Below, piece by piece: positions 1,844-52,444 of a DNA stretch of 64,000 nucleotides. Position 1 is the stretch's first letter, and each line of letters begins with the position of its first letter. The notes beneath the pieces were generated by a model that did not search any database, was not told where the DNA came from, and worked only from the letters and a program-made list of their open reading frames with translations. The stretch is taken from assembly GCA_965263355.1 (NCBI GenBank), contig CBDHHL010000032.1:1152001-1216000 (forward strand), read 5' to 3'. This DNA comes from Leptolyngbyaceae cyanobacterium (GTDB lineage Bacteria; Cyanobacteriota; Cyanobacteriia; Phormidesmidales; Phormidesmidaceae). Made by a program: the position numbers and the translations under genes.

Positions 1844-2890
1844 CTAGGCCGTACGATGTTGATTTTGTAGTTGTCGACTCTTTGCTACGTGTTGGGCGGC
1901 TTCAACGGTAGAAATATTAGCACTGCTGGCATAATTAAAAATTTCTAGTAATGTACCATAGATACTGTGAATATGATTGTTTACCTTGGTTGTTTGGTAC
2001 CCAATTAATTCGTGATAGACATTAATAAGCCCACCCGCATTAATGACAAAATCAGGACAATAAAGAATCCCTTTTTGCTTGAGTGATACTGCATCTTGAG
2101 ATGCATTTGCTAGTTGGTTGTTTGCACACCCTGCAATAATTGGAGCCTTGATGTTTTGCAACGTAAATTGATTAATCACACCACCCAATGCACAGGGTGA
2201 AAATACATCGGCATCTAGCCCCATTATTTGATTAGGAGGAACAACGGTTGCTTGATAGCGTTGTTGTATCCAGGCTGTTTTCTGGGTATCTAAATCACTG
2301 ACAAACAACTGAGCACCTTGTTCTGATAGATCATGACAGAGGGCTTGGCCCACATTGCCTAAGCCTTGAATTGCTACTTTTAAGCCCCTCAGAGTGTGAG
2401 ATTGCCATCGAAATGCTACGGCTGCTTTAATGCCCAATAGCACACCTTGAGCTGTTGCGATCGCAGGTCCTCCTCCTTTTTCTTCAACTCCAACAACATG
2501 ATTAGTAATTTGATGCATGGTGCGAACATCTTGAGCATTCAGGTTAACGTCTTGCCCGGTAACAAATCGACCACCCAGGCTATCGACAAAACGAGCATAG
2601 GCTTTGAGTAAGGTGTCTGTTTTTGCATCAGGATGGGCAATAATTACCCCCTTTGCGCCTCCAACCGGAATCTTGGCACAAGCGGCCTTATAGGTCATGC
2701 CTCGGCTTAGGCGCAGAACATCTTTCAGAGCATCGGCTTCATCAGTGTAGGGCCAGAGACGCGTGGCCCCCATAGCCCACCCAGGTGTGGTGTCATGTAA
2801 GGCGATAATGGCCTTTAGCCCTGTAGCCCTATGGCGACAGTACAAAACCTGCTCGTGGTCTGAACTTTGAATTGTTTGAAAGAGTTCCAT
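1844..2890 (-). CDS. scyB: Glu/Leu/Phe/Val dehydrogenase family, ScyB-like tryptophan dehydrogenase
   Basis: HEQV, AMGATR, SRGMTYKAACA, TGQDVN, GGPA, RWQS, QGLGNVG, PCALGG, ANNQL, INAGG; these match my recollection of Nostoc punctiforme ScyB/TrpDH better than Bacillus LeuDH (GGTR, TAEDV). Confidence 0.8.
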   Translation of the reverse strand: MELFQTIQSSDHEQVLYCRHRATGLKAIIALHDTTPGWAMGATRLWPYTDEADALKDVLRLSRGMTYKAACAKIPVGGAKGVIIAHPDAKTDTLLKAYARFVDSLGGRFVTGQDVNLNAQDVRTMHQITNHVVGVEEKGGGPAIATAQGVLLGIKAAVAFRWQSHTLRGLKVAIQGLGNVGQALCHDLSEQGAQLFVSDLDTQKTAWIQQRYQATVVPPNQIMGLDADVFSPCALGGVINQFTLQNIKAPIIAGCANNQLANASQDAVSLKQKGILYCPDFVINAGGLINVYHELIGYQTTKVNNHIHSIYGTLLEIFNYASSANISTVEAAQHVAKSRQLQNQHRTA

Positions 2891-2936
2891 GGTTTTGAGT
2901 TCTTAATACAATAACAGTCGACAATTATTGGGATGG

Positions 2937-4178
2937 TTAAGCTTGAGCACAAATCAGTGAAACCAGGGGCACGCCGTTATAACCAAAATTGAGGTAATGA
3001 TCAGCATGCTTTTGCAGAGTAAGTATGGGCGAGATGATCAAGGCATCAGTGCAGGAGGGGTTTAAGGTATAACCGCTCTGCTTTAGTCGGTTAACCCAGG
3101 ATTGAGCAGTTTCGTGGCGTTCAATACGGGCAGTGTTATCAGCTTTTAGTACATCAACAACTTCACGACCAAAGAAGCAGGTTTTTAAGCCATTTTTGCT
3201 TTGCTGATCAATTGCCAGAACGTCGATCATTTTGAAGACACTACTATAATGACGCCAGCAATTTTGAAATCGAATACGAAAGTCTGGCTCCAGATGATCG
3301 GTGTTAGGCTCAGATAAGACAATGAGTGCTGGATTGAGCTGATGCAGACGCTGTAGCATTTCTGTGCGTACATCTTGCCCAGCTTTATCACAAATATGAT
3401 GTAATGCAAAAGAAGCGTTTATGATAGGGCGATCACATTGATCCTTCAATTGTTGCCAGTCTTGAGCATTGAGATCTTCAATGCCATTACGAAACGCGGT
3501 AAAGGTAACATCAAGCCCAAGCTCATAGGCAGCAGCTAAGATTGTTTGTTGGGCTAGAGATAGGCTTTGTAATGAGGGTTCTATCCCAATAATGTTGACC
3601 CGTTGAGGTTTTCTATGTAGACAGGCTAACTGGTGAAGCAACTCGACCATTTGCCTGCCAGTCCCAATGCCGATATCAATCAGTGTGATATCATCGCGTC
3701 CATTGCAGGCGTCAATGAGTAAGCCGGTTGCGAGTTCGCTGATTTGTGAGACTAAAGGTACCTGGTTGGCTAACAGATTAAACAGTTGAATTTGTGGGAT
3801 TTCATAGGGTTTTAGGTAAAGATTGGCTTTGTCGGCCACACTATTAGAGAGGCGCTCTGCCAGGGCACGGGCAAAAATTAAATGAGCGATCGCATTGGAA
3901 TCAGTGGCGATATTGAGACTATCTAACAACTGGTTTAACTGAGCTTGAGCTGCACACATGTTCCCTTGCGCAATCAAATCTACAACGTTGAAAAGTCTCG
4001 TTTGATTCAAACTTGTTTGATTACGGTTAATGGTGACTGTGGGTTCAACCGGATAATGCTCTAACATCATCCTCACTCTAATATCAGTAATCGGTGCTAA
4101 TGTCTTCAGATTAGGTGTCATCAGTGTGCCTCTTTCAATAGTTTGTGGACTCTCGATTAACAAAAGATTAGGCGACAA
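2937..4178 (-). CDS. Bacterial GRAS-domain protein (Rossmann methyltransferase fold); true start may be a downstream Met
   Basis: LRI-like FARALAERL; VHIID-like ITLIDIGIGTGRQM; INASFALHHI; PFYRE-like LNPALIVLSE...RFQNCWRHYSSVF; SAW-region FGREV...RIERHETAQSW...GY. Confidence 0.88.
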   Translation of the reverse strand: MSPNLLLIESPQTIERGTLMTPNLKTLAPITDIRVRMMLEHYPVEPTVTINRNQTSLNQTRLFNVVDLIAQGNMCAAQAQLNQLLDSLNIATDSNAIAHLIFARALAERLSNSVADKANLYLKPYEIPQIQLFNLLANQVPLVSQISELATGLLIDACNGRDDITLIDIGIGTGRQMVELLHQLACLHRKPQRVNIIGIEPSLQSLSLAQQTILAAAYELGLDVTFTAFRNGIEDLNAQDWQQLKDQCDRPIINASFALHHICDKAGQDVRTEMLQRLHQLNPALIVLSEPNTDHLEPDFRIRFQNCWRHYSSVFKMIDVLAIDQQSKNGLKTCFFGREVVDVLKADNTARIERHETAQSWVNRLKQSGYTLNPSCTDALIISPILTLQKHADHYLNFGYNGVPLVSLICAQA

Positions 4179-4214
4179 CTTTTTATCTCGAATGGTGAAA
4201 GTATCTGGTGTGAC

Positions 4215-5036
4215 TTAAAAAGCCTGGTTGTCTCGGATGTGTGAGTCATTAAATAGAAGAGCGGTGGTTGCTTGCTGCATAATATCAGTCGTATCAAATA
4301 AATCGCCGTTGTAAATTTGGAGTTGTTCAGGGCAGTCTTGCCAAATTTGTTGCCAGCCGTCGGGAAAGCGGGTGTGATGGATGAGTTCAGCGCCATTGGG
4401 CCCCCAGGCTGCTTCAAATATCAGGCTGTCATTGTCTGATTCTGCGTCGGTATCGCCTGGCGTTTGAATGCCGAGACGGTCATAGAGATTAATCAGGGTT
4501 CCGTCCTGGGTGTAGCTTATGCCATTGCCACAGTAATCGGCTCTGGCCATGCGGGTGCAGGCCTGATGATAATCTCTTAGGGAAGTACCCTGCTCTGTTT
4601 GCCAAGGGCGATAGCCCCACAGGGCACATTTGGCGATAACACCGCTGGTGCAGGCAAATGTGATTTCGTCGTTGGCAACATAGGCTCCGGTGTCGTCCCA
4701 TTCACCCTGGAGGGGAATGACTTTAGTGCTGCCATCGGGAGCGGGGTTACACAGGTTATGCCACTCAAAGGTATCGGGGTCTTGATACTGGATGGTGTAG
4801 AGGTAGGTTTCTTGCTGGGGATCGTTGTTATCCAACTCTGGGTCGGTAACTTTGATGGTGAGAGATGCACCGCTGGTCGTTTCCAGGGTGGTGGGCCTAT
4901 CTTGCAGTTGTCCTTCAACATAGAAGGGGACCTGTAATGTTAATCCATGGCCTGGTAATACTGCTTGAGAGAAGCTTAGGGCCGAGACCGTAAGTAAAAG
5001 TGGATTGATTAGAGAGGATAGAGTTACGAATCGCAT
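4215..5036 (-). CDS. Secreted ADYC-domain protein
   Basis: Hydrophobic N-terminal signal; FACTSGVIAKCALWGYRPW, HQACTRMARADYCGNG, FEAAWGPNGA signature motifs. Confidence 0.85.
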   Translation of the reverse strand: MRFVTLSSLINPLLLTVSALSFSQAVLPGHGLTLQVPFYVEGQLQDRPTTLETTSGASLTIKVTDPELDNNDPQQETYLYTIQYQDPDTFEWHNLCNPAPDGSTKVIPLQGEWDDTGAYVANDEITFACTSGVIAKCALWGYRPWQTEQGTSLRDYHQACTRMARADYCGNGISYTQDGTLINLYDRLGIQTPGDTDAESDNDSLIFEAAWGPNGAELIHHTRFPDGWQQIWQDCPEQLQIYNGDLFDTTDIMQQATTALLFNDSHIRDNQAF

Positions 5037-5081
5037 GGTTAATACCTGAAATATTAGACCAGTGAAATTTTCAATCAGGGA

Positions 5082-5128
5082 AACCAGAGTTCACAGTTTA
5101 GAGAAGAAATAGAAAGAGAACTCTGGTT
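5082..5128. promoter_or_regulatory. Intergenic stem-loop between repeat-protein and ADYC genes
   Basis: AACCAGAGTTC (5082-5092) and GAACTCTGGTT (5118-5128) form a perfect 11-bp inverted repeat with a 25-nt loop. Confidence 0.55.
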
Positions 5129-5157
5129 CCGTGTTGTTGGGCGATGGTTAAGCTCTC

Positions 5158-5832
5158 TTATTTGGCAGCATGACCGTCTAATGAAGTGCCCTGTGTACCA
5201 TTGCTTTTAGGGGCATGACCACTTAAGGAGATGCCGTTGTGCATAGCTTTAGGGGCATGACCATTCAAGGAAGTGCTTTGGACAGCATGCCCTTTGGCAG
5301 CATGACCATTAGGAGCCTGTCCGTCTGGGGAGGAGCTGTTTATGGCCAATCTCTTAGGAGCTTGTCCGTCTAAGGAAGAGCTGTTTATGGCCAATCTCTT
5401 AGGAGCTTGTCCGTCTAAGGAAGAGCTGTTCGGTAATGTAACTTTAGGAGCCTGTTCGTTTAGGGAAGAGCCGTTTATGGCCAACCCCTTAGGAGCTTGT
5501 TCGTCTAAGGAAGAGCTGTTTTGACTGATTGCTTTAGGAGCCTGTCCGTTTAGGGAAGAGCTGTTAAACGTTGCTGCTTTAGGTGCATGACCATTTAAAG
5601 AAGTACCATTATTGATTGCTTTAGGAGCCTGTCCGCGTAAGGAAGAGCTGTTAAGCACTACTCTGTCCTTATCACTTTTGGGAGATAGTGGCTGGAAAAA
5701 GGAGGCTTTTGCCGAATTTGCTTTAGGGGATGAGTTTTCTAAAGAGACTGTGTTGGCATTGGCGATTGTTGTCAAGCTTAGTACAGATGTAAATGCACAA
5801 GCGGCGGCCATAGAGAAAGAAATGCGCTTCAT
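5158..5832 (-). CDS. Secreted low-complexity protein with about 11 NSSSL(N/D)GQAPK repeats
   Basis: Sec-type signal ending IANA; ~15-aa repeat made of three pentapeptides; GGAG RBS upstream. Confidence 0.85.
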   Translation of the reverse strand: MKRISFSMAAACAFTSVLSLTTIANANTVSLENSSPKANSAKASFFQPLSPKSDKDRVVLNSSSLRGQAPKAINNGTSLNGHAPKAATFNSSSLNGQAPKAISQNSSSLDEQAPKGLAINGSSLNEQAPKVTLPNSSSLDGQAPKRLAINSSSLDGQAPKRLAINSSSPDGQAPNGHAAKGHAVQSTSLNGHAPKAMHNGISLSGHAPKSNGTQGTSLDGHAAK

Positions 5833-5896
5833 AGATTCAGACTCCTAATAGTTTGTGGGATTTTGGAAAGAACAGTTCGTTTGCTGTTCTGATAAC

Positions 5897-5938
5897 AGAG
5901 TATGGAAGTAGGCGTCCTGAAAACGTCCGCTGGCGTCC
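5897..5938 (-). promoter_or_regulatory. Putative SARP/BTAD-type activated promoter: three phased GGACG(CC/TT) heptamers plus TACTCT -10-like hexamer
   Basis: Minus-strand heptamers at 5938-5932, 5928-5922, 5917-5911 (10 and 11 bp period), then 8 nt, then TACTCT at 5902-5897. Confidence 0.5.
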
Positions 5939-6021
5939 TGGGAAAAAATAGCGTTGATCCTATGGCTTGAGATACGTTCGTATCCCTTGAAATCACTAGG
6001 CTACAGTGCCAATGTGACGCG

Positions 6022-6049
6022 AAAACGTCCTGAAGCCTCAGGACGTTTT
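6022..6049. promoter_or_regulatory. Perfect 12-bp inverted repeat (terminator of STAND gene and/or operator)
   Basis: AAAACGTCCTGA-AGCC-TCAGGACGTTTT; arms share the CGTCC core of the nearby direct repeats. Confidence 0.6.
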
Positions 6050-6127
6050 TCATATCTATGAAGAGCAAGTGTGCTAAAAAATTCCCCAAAAGGCATTCAC
6101 CCGGTGACCTGTTTGGGGCATAAAAAA

Positions 6128-9100
6128 TTATTCAACTGCCCCTAATGCTTTGAGTGCCGATTTTTGGGCCTCGGTTAATCCGGTGACATTGGCAATCTGC
6201 ATACCGGCGTAGGGTTTCAAAATATGAAAGGTAGAAAGGCGGGTGCCACTTTCCACATCCCAGAGGGTGATTTTCTCGTCCTCACCGCTGCAGGCCAACA
6301 GATGTCCGTTAGGATGAAGCGCCATAGACCATAGGGGAGCTTCGTGGGTAAGTACTTGCAGACATTCCCCTGTTTGCACATCCCAAATGCGGGCAGTGCC
6401 GTCATGGCTGGCACTGGCAATCAAGTGCCCATCTGGATGAATGGTCATGGCATATACCCAGCCGGTATGACCAGTGAGGGTACGGAAGCATTCGCTTGAT
6501 TGCAAATTCCATAGTTTAATGGTGCGATCGCCACTAGCACTAGCTAACCAAGTCTCAGGTAGATCATCCAAGGTAGCTCCAGACTGAGACGGACTAAACG
6601 CCACCGCATACATCCAATCGGTATGCTCCTGCAGCGTTTGGACGCATTCCCCAGATTCCACATCCCAAAGCTTGATCATATGATCAGCCCCAGCACTGGC
6701 CAGCTGTCGTCCATCGGGACTAAAGGCCACGGCCCAAACTTGGTTAGCATGTCCTGGCAGCTGCTGACAGCATTGCCCTGTGGTCAAATCCCAAATCCGC
6801 ACCACCGGTTGAATGCTGCCACTCGCTAATAGCTTTCCTTGGGGATGAAATGCTACACCATGGACCCACCCTGCCCGACCATCCAAAATTTGAATACTTC
6901 GGCCAGTGTCCCCATCCCACAGTCGAATGGTTTGATCAAATCCCCCTGTTGCTAGGATGGTTTGCAAGGTGCCGGACAGTTGCTGCTGAGCCACGGCCCA
7001 AACCCCACTGCTATGCCCTTCTAATGTCTTTAAACATTTGCCTGTCCGACTATCCCAAAGACGAATCAGGCTATCATCCCCGCCGCTAACCAGGGTGAAA
7101 TCATCATCACAAAAGGTGAGCGACCGAATGCAGTTGGTATATCCCTGCAGCGTTTGGACACATTGCTGTGTCTCCATATCCCACAACCGAATGGTTTGAT
7201 CAAAGCCACCGCTGGCTAACCTCTGCCCATCGGGACTAAAGCCCACTGCCCAGATTTGATCGGTGTGTCCTAGCAATGTGGCCAGACAGCTTTCGTTTTG
7301 GACATCCCACAAGCGCACCGTTTGATCATTACTGCCACTGGCGAGCATCTGTCCATCGGGGCTAAAGGCAATTGCCCAGATTTGATCGGTATGGGCCATC
7401 AACGTACTTAAGCATTGGCCCGTTTCAAGATCCCATAGACGAATCGTTTGGTCAGCTCCAGCGCTAGCAAGCATCTCTTGAGTGGGGTGTAGGGTAACGG
7501 ACCAAACCGGAGCCTGATGACCTTGAAAAACGGTAACACAGTCTCCTGAGTCCACATCCCACCAACGCACTACCTGAGCGGCATGCCCCGTGGCCAAATG
7601 AGTTCCCCTCGGATTAAAGGCTACAGAACGGACCAATCCCCCCTGGCTCTCCAGGGTGTGTAAACATTCGCCAGTTGTAGCATCCCACAGCTTGGCCGTT
7701 TGGTCTTCGCTGCCGCTAGCTACCCGCTGTCCATCGGGGCTAAAGGCCACGGACCACACCACGCTGGTGTGATCCTGCAGTATTTTCAAACATTGGCCTG
7801 AGGGTACATCCCAAAGCCGCACCGTATAGTCAACGCTGCCACTGACCAGGGTTTTGCCATCGGGGCTAAAGGCGATGGACCACACCCATCCCTTATGGCC
7901 CTGCAACGTCATCAGAGGTTGTCCATCAGTAACACGCCAAATCTGAACGTTGTAATTGTTGTCTCCCATCGCCAGGAGTGTCCCATCGGGACTAAAGGCA
8001 ATGGATAGAGCACTGCCAAAGGCCTGGGTAAACACCGACCTTACAAATTGTGCATGGGAAACATCGAGTTGGTGAAGCGTTGTTCCCTGAAGATAGGCCT
8101 GACGAATAGTGAGCTGGGAAAAATCTAAGTTGCTGGTGTCTAACTGGTTTTGACAGCAAAGATTGAGCAAATTCCCGCCGGCGTAGCTGGCACGATGAAC
8201 TTCGGTGTCGTGAATAGCCGTTAAAATCTGCTGAATTTGTTGCGTTAGGGCTATGGATGATGATGCTTGATTAACCTGCTCAAGGATGGGTTGCAAAATC
8301 AGGCGACATTGACTTTCACGAATAAAGTCTTGAACTGTTGCTTTGATGAGGGCATAGGCCGAGAGATGTGGCAGTTCAGCTGCAGCCTCCCTAAGTGTTT
8401 CGTCAAAATAGCTAATATCCAAAAGTTCATCGCTGACGGCTTCGATCAAACAGACCGTGACATATTCCATGACAACGGATTGTTGGGTGTAGGTATTACC
8501 CCGGCGTTCAATTAGCGATCGCCAACAGAGCGACTCTAGGGTTTCCAACAACAGTCGTTTAGAACACCGAGGATAAATATCAGCCCTCAGCTCTGGAATG
8601 CTGGTCCACTCCCGGTTAATCGCCAGCCAATACATCACCGTCTTTTCTAGAGGACTGAGCCGATCAAATTGTCGATCAAGTAGCTTTTTTGCGCCGTTAA
8701 ATAGAAGGGTATCCTCTTCTAAAAAAAGAGAGATGTCTCCGGAAAACACATCCCGTATCGAACCGCCGACAATTTGCAATGCCAAAGGGCTATATCCATA
8801 TCGTTTCCCCAGTTGTTCTTTTTGCACCTGGGTACCGACCAGTTGCTTAGCGTCTAGTACTGCCAGAGCGGCTTCGGGAGAACCAGCAACTTGGAGCGAT
8901 CGCACCGACTGGTTGATGCTTTCAAATGTCGAAATTTCAGCCGGTTTTTCACGACTTGTGATCATCAGGCAGCTCTGATGATTTGCCTGTCCCACCACTT
9001 GAATCAATTCACCGTAGTTTTCATAGCCGTCTCGAAACTGTCCGGCGCGTTCGCCTCCCTTGAGGATGGTTTCGCAATTATCCAAAACTACCAGACACCG

Positions 9101-10378
9101 GGATTGTCGTAGCCAGTGCATCAAGCGGTTTGTGGAACAGGCAGTGTCCTGTTGATTTGACAAAAAAGGAATTAAATCATTGAGTAACGTTTCTAGGGGC
9201 GGCGCATTGCGAAGCGATCGCCAAATCAGGTGGTCAAATTCCCCTTGTAGTTCCTGAGCTATTTTGGCAACTAGTGCCGTTTTACCAATGCCCCCCATTC
9301 CCAGCACGGCGGTCAGTCGACAGGAGTTTTCAACAATCCATCGCCGCAACTGAGCCAGTTCATCCGTGCGACCGTAGAAGAACTCAATGTCAGGGGCTTC
9401 GCCCCAGTCAATAGACGTCTTTGCCTGGGGCAAGGCTCGATCATCTTTGATATTGAGCCCTTGATCTGAGGAGGACTCGTTGCTATCTGTAGCTACATTG
9501 GATTCTGAGAACAAGGTAGCTGTGGTAGCCTCGGAAGTAGGCGTTTCCCAGCCTGGTACCACGATATCGGTATCCGAAAACTCTCTTGTCGGTAAACTAT
9601 CTGAAATTTGGCTGGTAACTACCTGGGGGGTATCGTCTAGTGTGAGTAACTCTTCATACAAGCTGCAGGTACTAGGACTGGGTGGCATGCCCAATTCCTC
9701 TTGCAGTAAAGTCATGCATTGATGATAGATACGCATGGCAGTGGCGCGATCACCCTTTTGGGCATGCAGCTGCATGAGGTGACAATAGGCCAGCTCTGAG
9801 AGTGGATCTAACTCACATAATTGCTGCGCATATTCAATGGCTGAACTCAGCTGGCCTTGTTCTGTTAGCTGGGTAATCAAGGTATCCAGTGCTTTGATTG
9901 CTTGCTGTCGCATGCGATCGCGATAGGGCTCAATCCAGTCGTCATAACACTCTGGCAATAAATCTCCCTGGTAGAGTTTAGCGGCTTGCTTCAAGTCTTT
10001 GAGGGAACTGGTTTGAAATACTTGTTCGTTGATTACTTGTTCGTTTATCAGTGCTTCAAAACGGTCTATATCTAACGCACACCCCTTACCCATGACCCAC
10101 TGAACCGTTTTAGGCTTAACCTGCAGCCAGCGTTCGCTCTCAGGGATATGTTGCTTCAGTTCATGCAATCGTCGTCTTAAGTTGGCTTTAGCGTTAGTAT
10201 CCGTTGCGTCAGGCCAAAGAGTTGCCGCTATTTGCTGTCGAGATAGTGGTTCATCTCGATGCAGTAAAATAAATGCCAATAATGCCTGTAAGCGTTCAGA
10301 CTTTACCCCACTGATGGGCACAGTATCAGCACTGAGGGAAAACTTGCCCAATAGTTGAATCTGCAGTTGGGTAGACAC
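6128..10378 (-). CDS. STAND/NLR-type transcriptional regulator: wHTH + BTAD + NB-ARC + WD40 repeats
   Basis: N-terminal LQIQLLGKF...LWPD...NLRRRLHEL and BTAD (LYQGDLLPECYDDWI, DPLSE); DWGEAP; Walker A GMGGIGKT; Walker B LVVLDN; about 14 GH...WD repeats. Confidence 0.93.
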   Translation of the reverse strand: MSTQLQIQLLGKFSLSADTVPISGVKSERLQALLAFILLHRDEPLSRQQIAATLWPDATDTNAKANLRRRLHELKQHIPESERWLQVKPKTVQWVMGKGCALDIDRFEALINEQVINEQVFQTSSLKDLKQAAKLYQGDLLPECYDDWIEPYRDRMRQQAIKALDTLITQLTEQGQLSSAIEYAQQLCELDPLSELAYCHLMQLHAQKGDRATAMRIYHQCMTLLQEELGMPPSPSTCSLYEELLTLDDTPQVVTSQISDSLPTREFSDTDIVVPGWETPTSEATTATLFSESNVATDSNESSSDQGLNIKDDRALPQAKTSIDWGEAPDIEFFYGRTDELAQLRRWIVENSCRLTAVLGMGGIGKTALVAKIAQELQGEFDHLIWRSLRNAPPLETLLNDLIPFLSNQQDTACSTNRLMHWLRQSRCLVVLDNCETILKGGERAGQFRDGYENYGELIQVVGQANHQSCLMITSREKPAEISTFESINQSVRSLQVAGSPEAALAVLDAKQLVGTQVQKEQLGKRYGYSPLALQIVGGSIRDVFSGDISLFLEEDTLLFNGAKKLLDRQFDRLSPLEKTVMYWLAINREWTSIPELRADIYPRCSKRLLLETLESLCWRSLIERRGNTYTQQSVVMEYVTVCLIEAVSDELLDISYFDETLREAAAELPHLSAYALIKATVQDFIRESQCRLILQPILEQVNQASSSIALTQQIQQILTAIHDTEVHRASYAGGNLLNLCCQNQLDTSNLDFSQLTIRQAYLQGTTLHQLDVSHAQFVRSVFTQAFGSALSIAFSPDGTLLAMGDNNYNVQIWRVTDGQPLMTLQGHKGWVWSIAFSPDGKTLVSGSVDYTVRLWDVPSGQCLKILQDHTSVVWSVAFSPDGQRVASGSEDQTAKLWDATTGECLHTLESQGGLVRSVAFNPRGTHLATGHAAQVVRWWDVDSGDCVTVFQGHQAPVWSVTLHPTQEMLASAGADQTIRLWDLETGQCLSTLMAHTDQIWAIAFSPDGQMLASGSNDQTVRLWDVQNESCLATLLGHTDQIWAVGFSPDGQRLASGGFDQTIRLWDMETQQCVQTLQGYTNCIRSLTFCDDDFTLVSGGDDSLIRLWDSRTGKCLKTLEGHSSGVWAVAQQQLSGTLQTILATGGFDQTIRLWDGDTGRSIQILDGRAGWVHGVAFHPQGKLLASGSIQPVVRIWDLTTGQCCQQLPGHANQVWAVAFSPDGRQLASAGADHMIKLWDVESGECVQTLQEHTDWMYAVAFSPSQSGATLDDLPETWLASASGDRTIKLWNLQSSECFRTLTGHTGWVYAMTIHPDGHLIASASHDGTARIWDVQTGECLQVLTHEAPLWSMALHPNGHLLACSGEDEKITLWDVESGTRLSTFHILKPYAGMQIANVTGLTEAQKSALKALGAVE

Positions 10379-10403
10379 AGGAAATGTGGGTAGACACAGG
10401 AAA
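10368..10403. repeat. 17-bp direct repeat overlapping the STAND start codon
   Basis: TGGGTAGACACAGGAAA at 10368-10384 and 10387-10403. Confidence 0.8.
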
Positions 10404-10637
10404 CTTAAAAAGCAGCCTGAAGCAGCTGTCAGCGTAAATAAATTTCGTTTTATTCTATCGTGCTACTTTTGTATACCTCAAATACCCCTAAAAAACTTAA
10501 GATAATACTTTTCTACGTTCTAATCAGAACCATTTTGATTGCTGATAACGGTTTACGCCCCGTTGATTATGGGTATTGATTACGATGCAAAGTGATTAGA
10601 TTAAACTAGGGATATTGTTCAGTTGATAAATAAGCCA

Positions 10638-10690
10638 TGGTGGCTGCTAAGGAAAAATTCCCACAGATGACGCCCAAGGAGTATTTTGCC
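10638..10690 (+). pseudogene. 5' fragment of a Uma2-family endonuclease gene
   Basis: Translates as MVAAKEKFPQMTPKEYFA, a typical cyanobacterial Uma2 N-terminus, then switches abruptly to methyltransferase sequence. Confidence 0.6.
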
Positions 10691-11500
10691 CACATACAAA
10701 TGTCCTAACAGAGGATATACGTCAGCTTACTGGCCCAAGATTGCTTCAACAAGCTGGTCTTAAGCGTGGTGAGTTAGATTTATTAACTGGGTGTCCTCCA
10801 TGTCAAGGGTTTTCAACATTGCGGACTAAGCGGCGTAATCAAAAAAATGATGATCAGAGGAATGACCTAATTCGGGAAGTCTTACGTTTAGTTCGTTCTA
10901 TGCGACCAAGATCCGTTCTCATAGAGAATGTTCCAGGTTTAGCGAAAGATCGGAGATTTGCAGATTTTAGAAAAGGCTTGAAAAAATCTGGTTATTTTTC
11001 AGACTATGAAATTCTAAATGCGGCAGACTTTGGTGTTCCACAACGTCGTCGTCGTTTAGTACTTGTTGCCTTTCGAGGTATGGATGTGCCCAGTGGTTGG
11101 TCTTGTTACAAATCCGCCGAGAAGCATGTCAGGCAGACTATTTCTCATTTGTCTACCTCAGCTGGCTCTAGTGGAGATCCGCTACATGATATTCCAGAAC
11201 GAAGAACACCAGCTATGATGGCCAGAATAAAAGCTACTCCCAAAGATGGTGGTAGTCGCAAAGATTTACCTCCAGAAATGCAGTGTGAATGTCATATTCG
11301 TGGAGATGGATATTTTGATGTTTATGGAAGGATGGCATGGGATGATATTGCTCCTACTATTACTAGTGGATGTAGTAATCCTTCTAAGGGACGATTTTTG
11401 CATCCTGAGGAGGATCGAGCAATCATTCTCCGAGAAGCTGCACTGCTACAAACATTTCCAATAAATTATAAGTTTTGTCTTGAACGCGGGAAGGATCATG
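10690..11500 (+). pseudogene. DNA cytosine-5 methyltransferase, truncated at both ends
   Basis: GCPPCQGFS, IENVPG, GVPQRRRR, REAALLQTFP present; motif I (FxGxG) and motif X (GNA) absent. Confidence 0.8.
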
Positions 11501-12086
11501 TCTTGAATCTAATAATGTTTCTAAGGAATTTAGTGTAGTGGTTCAAAGAGGTGGAACTGCAATCCGCTCCAATCAACTTTATCGAGATATCAAAGCTTTT
11601 GCTAACTCTGGGAGAAAAAATATTTTTATTATTTTTGATGGTGATCATTATCCTGAAAGAGTTATTCCAGAAGATGGTCTCTTGCCACAAGGTGAAAAGG
11701 AAATAAAGGGTCTGATTAACGATATTACAAAAGGTAATAATTCTAAAGGTCCTAATCTAAACTTTGAAGATGTAGATGATATGACACGCTACATTCAATT
11801 TTTTCGACAGTTTATTTATTTCCTCCCGGCCCGTACGCCTGAGGAATTGGTTTGGAATAATGATGTTGCAAAAGAACTCTTAAAAAAAGAAGTTCCCAAG
11901 AGCATTTTAGGGGTAAAAAGTTATAAACAAAAAATCGCTATGCTTGCAGATATACTTCCAGGAGTCGATCCTGAAGCAGTGTTTCAATTTCTACTGTTAG
12001 GTTTCCTGAGTCGAGATAGTGAGCTCAAGTCAGAACTCATGGAACGTATTCAAGAGATTCGCTCATATCTTGCTACCAAATTGTAG
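11496..12086 (+). pseudogene. C-terminal TOPRIM-like fragment of a probable OLD-type ATP-dependent nuclease
   Basis: Frame open from about 11496 (SCLESNNVSKEFSVVVQRGG...IFIIFDGD...TPEELVW); AT-rich; no proper start. Confidence 0.5.
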
Positions 12087-52135: not shown

Positions 52136-52444
52136 ATGTCTGTTTATGTGGGCAATTTGTCCTATGACGTTACTCGTCAAGATATCGAGGACGTTTTTAA
52201 TGAGTATGGTCGTGTAAACCGGGTTAGTTTACCGACGGATCGTGAAACAGGTCGCCTTCGCGGATTTGCTTTTGTAGAGATGGCCGCTAAAGAGGATGAG
52301 ACCAAAGCCATTGAAGCCCTAGACGGTGCTGAGTGGATGGGTCGCGTCCTGAAAGTTAATGAGGCTAAGCCTCGCAATGCTTCTGCTGGCGGTGGCGGTG
52401 GCGGTGGCGGTGGCGGTGGCAACTATCGCCGCAACTCTTTCTGA
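52136..52444 (+). CDS. rbp: RRM RNA-binding protein with Gly-rich tail (cyanobacterial Rbp)
   Basis: SVYVGNL, RGFAFVEM, LDGAEWMGRVLKVNEA. Confidence 0.95.
   Translation: MSVYVGNLSYDVTRQDIEDVFNEYGRVNRVSLPTDRETGRLRGFAFVEMAAKEDETKAIEALDGAEWMGRVLKVNEAKPRNASAGGGGGGGGGGGNYRRNSF

Follow-up and report, generated by a model that had tools for sequence, protein, structure and literature searches.

In the window (the whole 64-kb stretch of DNA analysed here, from a Leptolyngbyaceae cyanobacterium), we found five minus-strand ORFs within the stretch 1844-10378, all of which we read as real. Following the minus strand from the regulator onward, the genes and associated elements are:

6128 to 10378, minus strand: SARP-type STAND regulator, 1416 aa, assigned from profile searches
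6022 to 6049, no strand assigned: 12-bp perfect, terminator-like hairpin past the regulator stop, its base marked by A/T runs and each arm carrying GGACG
5913 to 5938, minus strand: three GGACG repeats, a candidate SARP box, with spacings of 10 then 11 bp
5899 to 5904, minus strand: candidate –10 element CATACT, read from the sequence, 8 bp past the last GGACG and with no canonical –35
5847 to 5858, minus strand: first copy of a 12-mer, 14 nt ahead of the repeat-gene ATG and common to the GRAS leader
5158 to 5832, minus strand: secreted repeat protein, 224 aa, with a signal-peptide-like N-terminus (judged from sequence and hydropathy only)
5082 to 5128, no strand assigned: hairpin lacking a U tail, in the gap from the repeat gene to the ADYC gene, a possible mRNA stabiliser or step-down
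4215 to 5036, minus strand: secreted ADYC-domain protein, 273 aa, ADYC E = 1.6e-53, with conserved cysteines
4137 to 4148, minus strand: second copy of the 12-mer, 15 nt ahead of the GRAS ATG at 4121
2937 to 4121, minus strand: bacterial GRAS protein, 394 aa when read from the ATG at 4121, as in the protein-collection entry
1844 to 2890, minus strand: tryptophan-dehydrogenase-like ELFV dehydrogenase, 348 aa, ELFV E = 2.5e-21 and 2.6e-19
1796 to 1824, no strand assigned: hairpin between the dehydrogenase stop and a convergent TPR gene, the likely end of the unit

These coordinates bear out the preliminary description of five co-oriented minus-strand genes with short gaps: in gene order from the regulator, the intergenic gaps are 295, 121, 93 (36 if the GRAS gene starts at the TTG of a longer ORF, 2937-4178, 413 aa) and 46 nt. 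The domain assignments made there also stand, with BTAD, NB-ARC, ADYC, GRAS and ELFV dehydrogenase all matched in HMM searches. Short gaps, a hairpin behind the last gene and a scan of the window that showed no strong consensus terminator within the set of four make it likely, in our view, that the four downstream genes form one predicted transcript. The gap between the repeat gene and the ADYC gene folds with –26.3 kcal/mol, a value for the whole gap and without a shuffle control. The leader 12-mer, a pattern picked by eye, is present in two exact copies in the window and in two copies in 0 of 100 shuffles; a 14-nt form allowing two mismatches was at chance level (11/100 shuffles) and was set aside. 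Contigs from two runs with the same organism label, which may be the window's own source, extend over all five genes and differ from the window sequence only at scattered single bases, and no single piece spans the whole stretch.

All five HIP1 sites listed earlier (2457, 3886, 6524, 8515 and 8896) exist, and two further sites at 9214 and 9914 bring the locus to seven of the window's 25. Since five of the seven lie inside the regulator and none in the repeat gene or the ADYC gene, the sites are weak evidence for the long residence that had been proposed; they do not show it for the repeat/ADYC module, and we rejected them as proof of age for those two genes.

The regulator consists of a weak winged helix and a BTAD domain, an NB-ARC domain with intact Walker A/B-like motifs, and two WD40 propellers (13 WD40 stretches). 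BTAD (E = 5.8e-25) and NB-ARC (E = 6.4e-10) both score above cut-off, and the winged helix (E = 0.004) scores below it. The AfsR model matches residues 5-249 with E = 1.4e-9 at a score far below the model cut-off, and the large-SARP layout of an OmpR-type winged helix (weak), BTAD and NTPase is present. Our literature search for BTAD, NB-ARC and WD40 regulators in cyanobacteria found no paper describing the combination.

The phased repeats reported earlier for the 5833-6127 gap are real and correspond to the GGACG triple. This is the only such match in the window and occurs in 0 of 100 shuffles, for a pattern chosen after being seen; strict 11/11-bp spacing gives no match, the true spacing being 10/11. 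CATACT is absent from the matches of a consensus promoter scan. Two of the GGACG copies are 11 bp apart and end 8 bp from CATACT, and the third is 10 bp off; in large-SARP targets (PMC10936776) the repeats are spaced by 11 or 22 bp and lie 8 bp from the –10. As read from the sequence, this arrangement is compatible with the neighbouring SARP-type regulator acting as activator, and we lean towards a four-gene unit under its control. Because the first spacing is 10 rather than 11 bp and each arm of the 6022-6049 hairpin contains GGACG as well, the motif may derive from a dispersed repeat. The hairpin itself is possibly also a dispersed repeat or a second binding site; other contigs of run X4 match the window there and then diverge.

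The body of the repeat protein is built of 11 S-L-x-G-Q/H-A-P-K units with a period of 15 residues (3 x 5), and its lag-15 self-identity is 0.39 (0/1000 shuffles). It has no Pfam or NCBIfam match, no homologue among 1498 candidates and no Atlas match at 0.9. The ADYC protein has a confident predicted model (pLDDT 84.7, pTM 0.85); a fold search of 48,161 chains returned none at Z ≥ 5 (best Z 4.0, beta-trefoils, over residues 7-102), which does not show that the fold is new. A predicted complex of ADYC with the repeat region scored 0.00, the fold of the partner being uncertain. Elsewhere, an adjacent period-5 repeat gene stands beside 12 of 13 stand-alone ADYC genes. The preliminary description had two surface proteins exported; two secreted proteins are indeed encoded, and given this pairing they are better read as one conserved two-part module. 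Judged by eye, a C-terminal hairpin motif is found in 11 of 12 partner repeat proteins elsewhere and is absent from the window's, where a regular-expression match to it proved spurious. Counting the centre genomes, ADYC was present in 1 of 201 genomes from Acidobacteriota and in 3 of 401 from Alphaproteobacteria, and a literature search on ADYC found no paper describing the gene combination.

The dehydrogenase is closer to PDB 5B37 (E = 1.7e-128) than to leucine dehydrogenase (E = 3.3e-92). Where tryptophan and leucine dehydrogenases differ, it matches 5B37 at M40, A69, G112-Q113, V133, L288 and Y292, residues that we take to line the pocket, and it has V110 where 5B37 has I110. The ScyB model gives 526.7 bits, below its equivalog cut-off of 600. 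A scytonemin pathway was rejected, with no partner genes among the window ORFs scanned, several of which have no family at E 1e-8.

The GRAS protein matches profile PF03514 with E = 1.8e-43 (149.4 bits, cut-off 27). SAM motif I (D149-x-G-x-G-x-G155, with G151 and G153 present) and E181, the acidic residue that follows strand 2, are intact; GxGxG is kept in 78 of 80 GRAS rows and D/E181 in 80 of 80, and plant RGA has lost the SAM-motif glycines. We regard the window protein as probably an active methyltransferase. In a limited literature search, we met with no bacterial GRAS protein whose substrate had been measured; the adjacent tryptophan-dehydrogenase-like gene provides a candidate. H241, H242, E271 and H291 are conserved in the window protein, with H241 in 79 and H291 in 74 of the 80 rows, and plant RGA has both histidines too. 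SgvM, MppJ, MarI, CdpJ, MrsA and GlmT are 2-oxo-acid C-methyltransferases with an amino-transfer partner, and the zinc ligands of SgvM include H244 and H296 (both from PMC10502145). H241 and H291 are 50 residues apart, as compared to 52 in SgvM, and the two pairs occupy similar secondary-structure positions, an equivalence that is positional only. Metal-ligand mapping through an MrsA-like stand-in homologue was abandoned, the matches being too distant. The reading that we favour, with slightly less than even confidence, is that the operon is regulated and that its GRAS protein methylates a 2-oxo acid, for which indole-3-pyruvate is the likeliest candidate.

When we looked at the neighbourhoods of related genes, we found an ADYC or dehydrogenase gene at 0 of 82 other GRAS loci, a set that lies outside the window's own GRAS clade and in which only 55 of 81 loci had at least 1.2 kb downstream, and a GRAS or dehydrogenase gene at 0 of 18 ADYC loci. 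A full-length regulator homologue on a Kovacikia plasmid also has unrelated genes around it. In the loci covered, the neighbourhoods went against the "candidate new system" of the preliminary description as a conserved five-gene unit; a system restricted to the lineage of the window may still exist, the loci counted lying outside its close cyanobacterial relatives. We read the locus as a three-module mosaic: a STAND activator, the repeat/ADYC pair, and GRAS with the dehydrogenase. An unlikely reading takes this further, with the regulator driving the repeat/ADYC pair, and GRAS and dehydrogenase as separate later insertions with no shared chemistry, GRAS making or binding some other small signal, as it would in the clades where it sits in signalling operons. 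The zero counts agree with this, as do the varied neighbours at the GRAS loci nearest the window's clade, a GC3 that varies from 0.36 to 0.53 between the genes, and a decayed low-GC island immediately upstream. Against it stand the 46-nt gap between GRAS and dehydrogenase, the intact reading frames, the 12-mer leader common to GRAS and the repeat gene, and an aminotransferase partner that recurs elsewhere: a co-oriented class I/II aminotransferase lies within 400 nt in 18 of 81 GRAS loci. These enzymes are HisC-like, and an aminotransferase interconverts amino acid and 2-oxo acid just as the dehydrogenase does. In the tree, a single clade other than the window's holds 15 of the 16 aminotransferase-linked rows, and several of the loci are near-duplicates, so the linkage perhaps represents two or three events. 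Other GRAS clades are found in signalling operons without such an enzyme (16 and 12 of 81 loci), which speaks against the 2-oxo-acid reading.

GRAS was absent from the 401 Pseudomonadota genomes searched, and viral contigs held no locus for GRAS, dehydrogenase or ADYC. A metagenome scan with the single GRAS protein gave no matches, and one with the GRAS alignment gave at least 599 stretches. We found no paper on GRAS with tryptophan dehydrogenase in cyanobacteria, nor on a GRAS operon with an aminotransferase.

Three of 91 GRAS homologues (P0010, P0011 and P0016) carry 1, 3 and 4 in-frame cassettes ahead of GRAS, each with a double-glycine leader that matches double-glycine leader models, a Cys-x-Pro-Trp-Glu/Asp-Cys core and an NHNE tail. 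Fusions of precursor and methyltransferase are known from the borosins. The extreme N-terminus of the three is common to the window GRAS, which is nearer P0010 and P0016 than P0011 is; a single clade of fused forms is rejected (p-AU 0.003), and the tree is compatible with either two gains of the cassettes or their loss on the way to the window protein. P0097 is a cassette protein that stands alone, and the cassette region of P0016 has no homologue that we could find. The clade could on this evidence modify ribosomal peptides, the window copy having lost its cassettes and acting on a trans precursor or on the repeat protein. We think this improbable: no NHNE-type precursor is present in the 64-kb window and no NHNE cassette near 81 other GRAS loci, ADYC/repeat pairs occur elsewhere without GRAS, the three fusions were all found in metagenome-assembled genomes, where read-through from a peptide gene lying upstream could have produced them, and the dehydrogenase is left unexplained. 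The literature search found no paper on NHNE precursor peptides.

The predicted GRAS model (pLDDT 90) is closest to plant GRAS proteins (VIA-align Z 33-37; SCL3 Z 37.2, rmsd 2.5, 345 aligned). In a Foldseek search, MrsA and SgvM rank 14 and 16, just under the plant entries; by VIA-align, their Z-scores (14.8 and 15.5) are below those of BelI (19.1, rmsd 3.0, 206 aligned), MM_2633 (19.0) and CmoA (18.4), so that comparison of the predicted structure does not single out the keto-acid methyltransferases as nearest. The only NCBIfam match is the 2-ketoarginine methyltransferase TIGR04543 (E = 2e-4), whose 20.6 bits lie far below the cut-off of 425. In its usual design, C3-methylation has a reversible dehydrogenase or aminotransferase partner (MrsA/MrsB, MppJ, MarI). 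That partner, and a spread of Z among non-GRAS matches that is small next to the 14-point fall from plant GRAS, make it quite improbable that GRAS is instead a carboxyl or N-methyltransferase working in the same operon on the same tryptophan-derived pool, yielding a methyl ester or N-methyl indole of indole-pyruvate, -lactate or -acetate that stores or volatilises an auxin-type signal, even with small-molecule methyltransferases as the best non-GRAS fold matches and BelI, presumably a carboxyl O-methyltransferase, first among them.

Returning to the regulated operon with a 2-oxo-acid methyltransferase, we picture a mosaic that would have been assembled within one cyanobacterial lineage. The STAND regulator would be held off until a ligand binds the WD40 propellers; its SARP head would then bind the GGACG repeats over the –35 position and turn on the four-gene transcript. 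The first two genes would give an exported pentapeptide-repeat protein and its ADYC partner, a conserved pair, probably made up of a beta-solenoid and the factor that caps or assembles it. The dehydrogenase would oxidise L-tryptophan to indole-3-pyruvate, and GRAS, SAM-dependent and probably metal-dependent, would methylate this at C3, an assignment of substrate and position that is tentative; the reversible dehydrogenase may then give back beta-methyl-tryptophan. A methylated-indole product is chemically reasonable; it would be induced along with the envelope module and would likely serve as a building block or a diffusible signal.

A broader proposal, which we consider rather unlikely, is that bacterial GRAS proteins, from which plant DELLA/SCR/SHR derive, work by metal-dependent 2-oxo-acid methylation, applied here to indole-3-pyruvate (the auxin precursor) on demand under a STAND switch, with sister lineages fused to tryptophan-containing peptide cassettes that GRAS may modify. 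If so, the two histidines kept in plant GRAS would be the relic of a metal and 2-oxo-acid site. The locus bears on the ancestral role of a major family of plant regulators, in that it gives a specific candidate substrate for bacterial GRAS together with the enzyme predicted to make it. Further points of interest are the regulator and its predicted binding site, the precursor-fused relatives of GRAS, and the ADYC protein, which is confidently modelled yet lacks a clear structural match. Should GRAS and the dehydrogenase be unlinked, what is left is an ordinary mosaic of known parts.

Like AfsR and the afs box (PMC10936776), the locus combines a SARP head, a nucleotide-binding domain and a repeat sensor with a candidate target in which direct repeats at 11-bp spacing stand close to a weak –10; the window regulator has WD40 propellers where AfsR has TPR, its host is a cyanobacterium, and the repeat sequence of its candidate box is different. 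In common with other PF20032 loci, a stand-alone ADYC gene directly adjoins a gene for a secreted Asn-rich repeat protein; in contrast, the window repeat has a 15-residue period with Pro and Lys and lacks the C-terminal hairpin motif, and predicted co-transcription with two cytoplasmic enzymes is seen at no other examined ADYC locus. The closest solved relative of the dehydrogenase is ScyB/tryptophan dehydrogenase of Nostoc punctiforme (PDB 5B37), with which it shares the residues that distinguish that enzyme from leucine dehydrogenase; unlike ScyB, it falls under the ScyB cut-off and has no scytonemin-type partners among the scanned ORFs. With the SgvM/MppJ/MrsA group (PMC10502145), GRAS shares a predicted role as SAM-dependent methyltransferase, two histidines about 50 residues apart and a neighbour that interconverts amino acid and 2-oxo acid (here the dehydrogenase 46 nt downstream). 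It belongs to a separate family, with a GRAS cap where they have a dimerisation domain, an NAD-linked dehydrogenase where they have a PLP transaminase, and no NRPS or PKS nearby, and the likeness proposed is one of working alone. The bacterial GRAS proteins of Zhang, Iyer and Aravind 2012, in the form in which they are cited in PMC4279901 and 10.1101/398883, have the same Rossmann methyltransferase fold and intact SAM motifs; what sets the window protein apart from them is that it adjoins a tryptophan-dehydrogenase-like gene.

The five minus-strand genes of the preliminary description are present in the window sequence at 1844-10378, between a convergent gene and a low-GC island.

936-1754, convergent gene: signal-peptide-like protein with one TPR; a terminator-like hairpin is common to it and the dehydrogenase gene
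1844-2890, minus strand: ELFV dehydrogenase
2937-4121, minus strand: GRAS
4215-5036, minus strand: ADYC
5158-5832, minus strand: repeat gene
5913-5938, 5' of the repeat gene: three GGACG copies, spaced 10 and 11 bp
6022-6049: hairpin with GGACG on both arms
6128-10378, minus strand: regulator
10600-12086: island of low GC (GC3 0.26) that holds a C5 DNA methylase and a 182-aa ORF

Profile scans identified BTAD, NB-ARC and WD40 domains in the regulator gene and ADYC, GRAS and ELFV dehydrogenase domains in the third, fourth and fifth genes; the second gene, encoding the repeat protein, matched no family in these scans. Taking the ATG at 4121 as the GRAS start, the intergenic gaps are 295, 121, 93 and 46 nt. 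HIP1 sites are far more frequent in the window than expected (25 observed, 0.57 expected), which marks the DNA as cyanobacterial. Of the seven within the locus, the regulator contains five, whereas the repeat and ADYC genes have none. Among named organisms, Leptothoe spongobia has the nearest GRAS relative (75% identity). A 17-nt tandem duplication at 10361-10398 covers the regulator start codon and could be the scar of an upstream insertion. In the low-GC island, the methylase seemingly lacks its N-terminus, the 182-aa ORF matched no family, and 12 nt at 11563 are absent from two sequencing runs with contigs matching the window (X1 and X3).

The preliminary description had proposed a single sensor-activated system making a modified indole and two surface proteins; its observations were confirmed, and this interpretation was partly supported. 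Homologues of the five genes did not co-occur in the loci compared. Among the matches listed, we compared 82 other GRAS loci (at least 74 from metagenomes, seven from 201 Myxococcota genomes and one from a plasmid), all outside the window's own cyanobacterial GRAS clade, and six-frame profile searches found neither the dehydrogenase nor ADYC in any of them (0/82). The same searches found neither GRAS nor the dehydrogenase in any of 18 ADYC loci. BTAD, NB-ARC and WD40 gave no tblastn match in 81 of the listed GRAS loci, many of them on short contigs (1.2 kb downstream in 55/81, on both sides in 35/81), or in 17 of the ADYC loci. A full-length regulator homologue (37.6% identity, covering 99% of regulator residues 1-793) is found on a Kovacikia plasmid (L115:873-19000), where it sits amid unrelated genes and no ADYC is present. 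Large proteins that look secreted surround it there, along with two membrane proteins that are paralogues. Thus, across bacteria outside the window's lineage, the parts of the locus move independently. A regulated mosaic is the preferred reading of the locus.

The regulator has the layout of a large SARP, with WD40 propellers as the sensor. In the available text of PMC10936776, the rule for SARP promoters places the 3' repeat 8 bp from the -10 element, sets the spacing between repeats at 11 or 22 bp and includes a poor -35. Upstream of the repeat gene, CATACT begins 8 bp after the end of the last GGACG, so that the candidate box would be a good fit to this rule, depending on which base is counted as the last of the repeat; one spacing is 11 bp as in the rule, whereas the other is 10 bp. 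A fourth GGACGTTTT is present at 52189-52197, outside the locus. Alternatively, the GGACG motif may derive from a dispersed repeat, because GGACG also occurs in the 6022-6049 hairpin and other contigs of run X4 match there. An exact 12-mer, chosen by eye, has just two copies in the window, 14 nt before the repeat-gene ATG and 15 nt before the GRAS ATG; an extended form with mismatches allowed did not exceed chance. The 12-mer suggests a shared leader or translational signal, and with it some integration of the secreted pair with the enzyme module.

The window repeat protein has a signal-peptide-like start followed by 11 units with a 15-residue period. Among 13 stand-alone ADYC genes (Alphaproteobacteria, Acidobacteriota and one Burkholderiaceae bin), 12 lie next to a small gene whose product carries period-5 repeats and a signal-like N-terminus, and the thirteenth is at a contig end. 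For 11 partners the periodicity exceeded at least 999/1000 shuffles, and for the twelfth 987/1000. Five further ADYC proteins, which come from a single myxobacterial bin, contain the repeats within the same polypeptide. The predicted model of the window's ADYC protein is confident (pLDDT 84.7). The repeat letters vary, while Asn or Gln returns every five residues, a pattern that would be more in keeping with a beta-solenoid than with a core modified by an enzyme. A Microvirga locus (L010:8293-11608) carries two repeat/ADYC pairs in tandem, and in one pair the five-residue unit recurs about 26 times in near-perfect form.

Precursor-like cassettes, in-frame and in tandem where there are several, form the N-terminus of 3/91 GRAS homologues and number one, three or four per protein; the three proteins (P0010, P0011 and P0016) come from cyanobacterial bins. 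A cassette begins with a double-glycine leader, continues with a Cys-x-Pro-Trp-Glu/Asp-Cys core and ends in an NHNE tail; P0097, encoded on a contig of 1 kb, is a cassette protein that stands alone. No NHNE-type cassette was found within the 64-kb window. In a 15-row tree with the extension trimmed, the window GRAS groups with P0010 and P0016 without P0011 (support 96/95), and a single clade of cassette-fused forms was rejected (p-AU 0.003); cassette loss in the window's lineage and two gains would both fit. Among the matches listed, a conserved multi-gene operon, with STAS-like and nucleotide-cyclase-like proteins by eye, lies 3' of GRAS in 16/81 loci, including Myxococcota genomes (L057, L061, L073, L079, L082-L084, L086, L087, L091, L100, L108-L112). 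A 130-aa protein family flanks GRAS in 12/81 listed loci from two separate GRAS clades (L039, L058, L059, L063, L065, L069, L074, L075, L088, L089, L094, L101), and a C-terminal TerB-like domain is fused to GRAS in 11/91 homologues (P0017-P0021, P0024, P0025, P0031, P0033, P0043, P0067). The literature covered, which excludes most subscription journals, held nothing relevant on this gene combination, ADYC or NHNE precursors. According to papers that cite it, the description of GRAS as a bacterial Rossmann methyltransferase is from Zhang, Iyer and Aravind 2012, whose text or supplement may already list such gene neighbours.

The SAM motifs are intact in the window GRAS, lost in RGA and near-invariant across 80 bacterial GRAS rows. 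The predicted GRAS model (pLDDT 90) matches plant GRAS best (Z 33-37), followed by various small-molecule methyltransferases (Z 19 and below). Among the matches listed, no enzyme adjoins bacterial GRAS more often than a class I/II aminotransferase, which is on the same strand within 400 nt in 18/81 loci, not counting three further loci with one at 2.6-3.3 kb. In the window, this place is taken by a dehydrogenase whose closest match is the tryptophan dehydrogenase of Nostoc. Aminotransferases and amino-acid dehydrogenases both interconvert amino acids and 2-oxo acids, so both partners are of the type expected beside 2-oxo-acid C-methyltransferases. In SgvM, according to the portion of PMC10502145 available, zinc held by H244 and H296 enolises the keto acid, and GRAS has the conserved histidines H241 and H291. 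The value of the locus is a testable candidate substrate for bacterial GRAS. The 2-oxo-acid reading and a peptide substrate need not be exclusive, since ApyS, in the accessible part of PMC11117315, shows that an enzyme of the keto-acid methyltransferase kind can act on a peptide. Against a 2-oxo acid, 15/16 aminotransferase-linked tree rows (two short loci dropped) fall in one clade, which is not the window's, and other GRAS clades are located in signalling operons. The fold scores also place BelI and CmoA above SgvM and MrsA, and the GRAS histidines match those of SgvM in position only.
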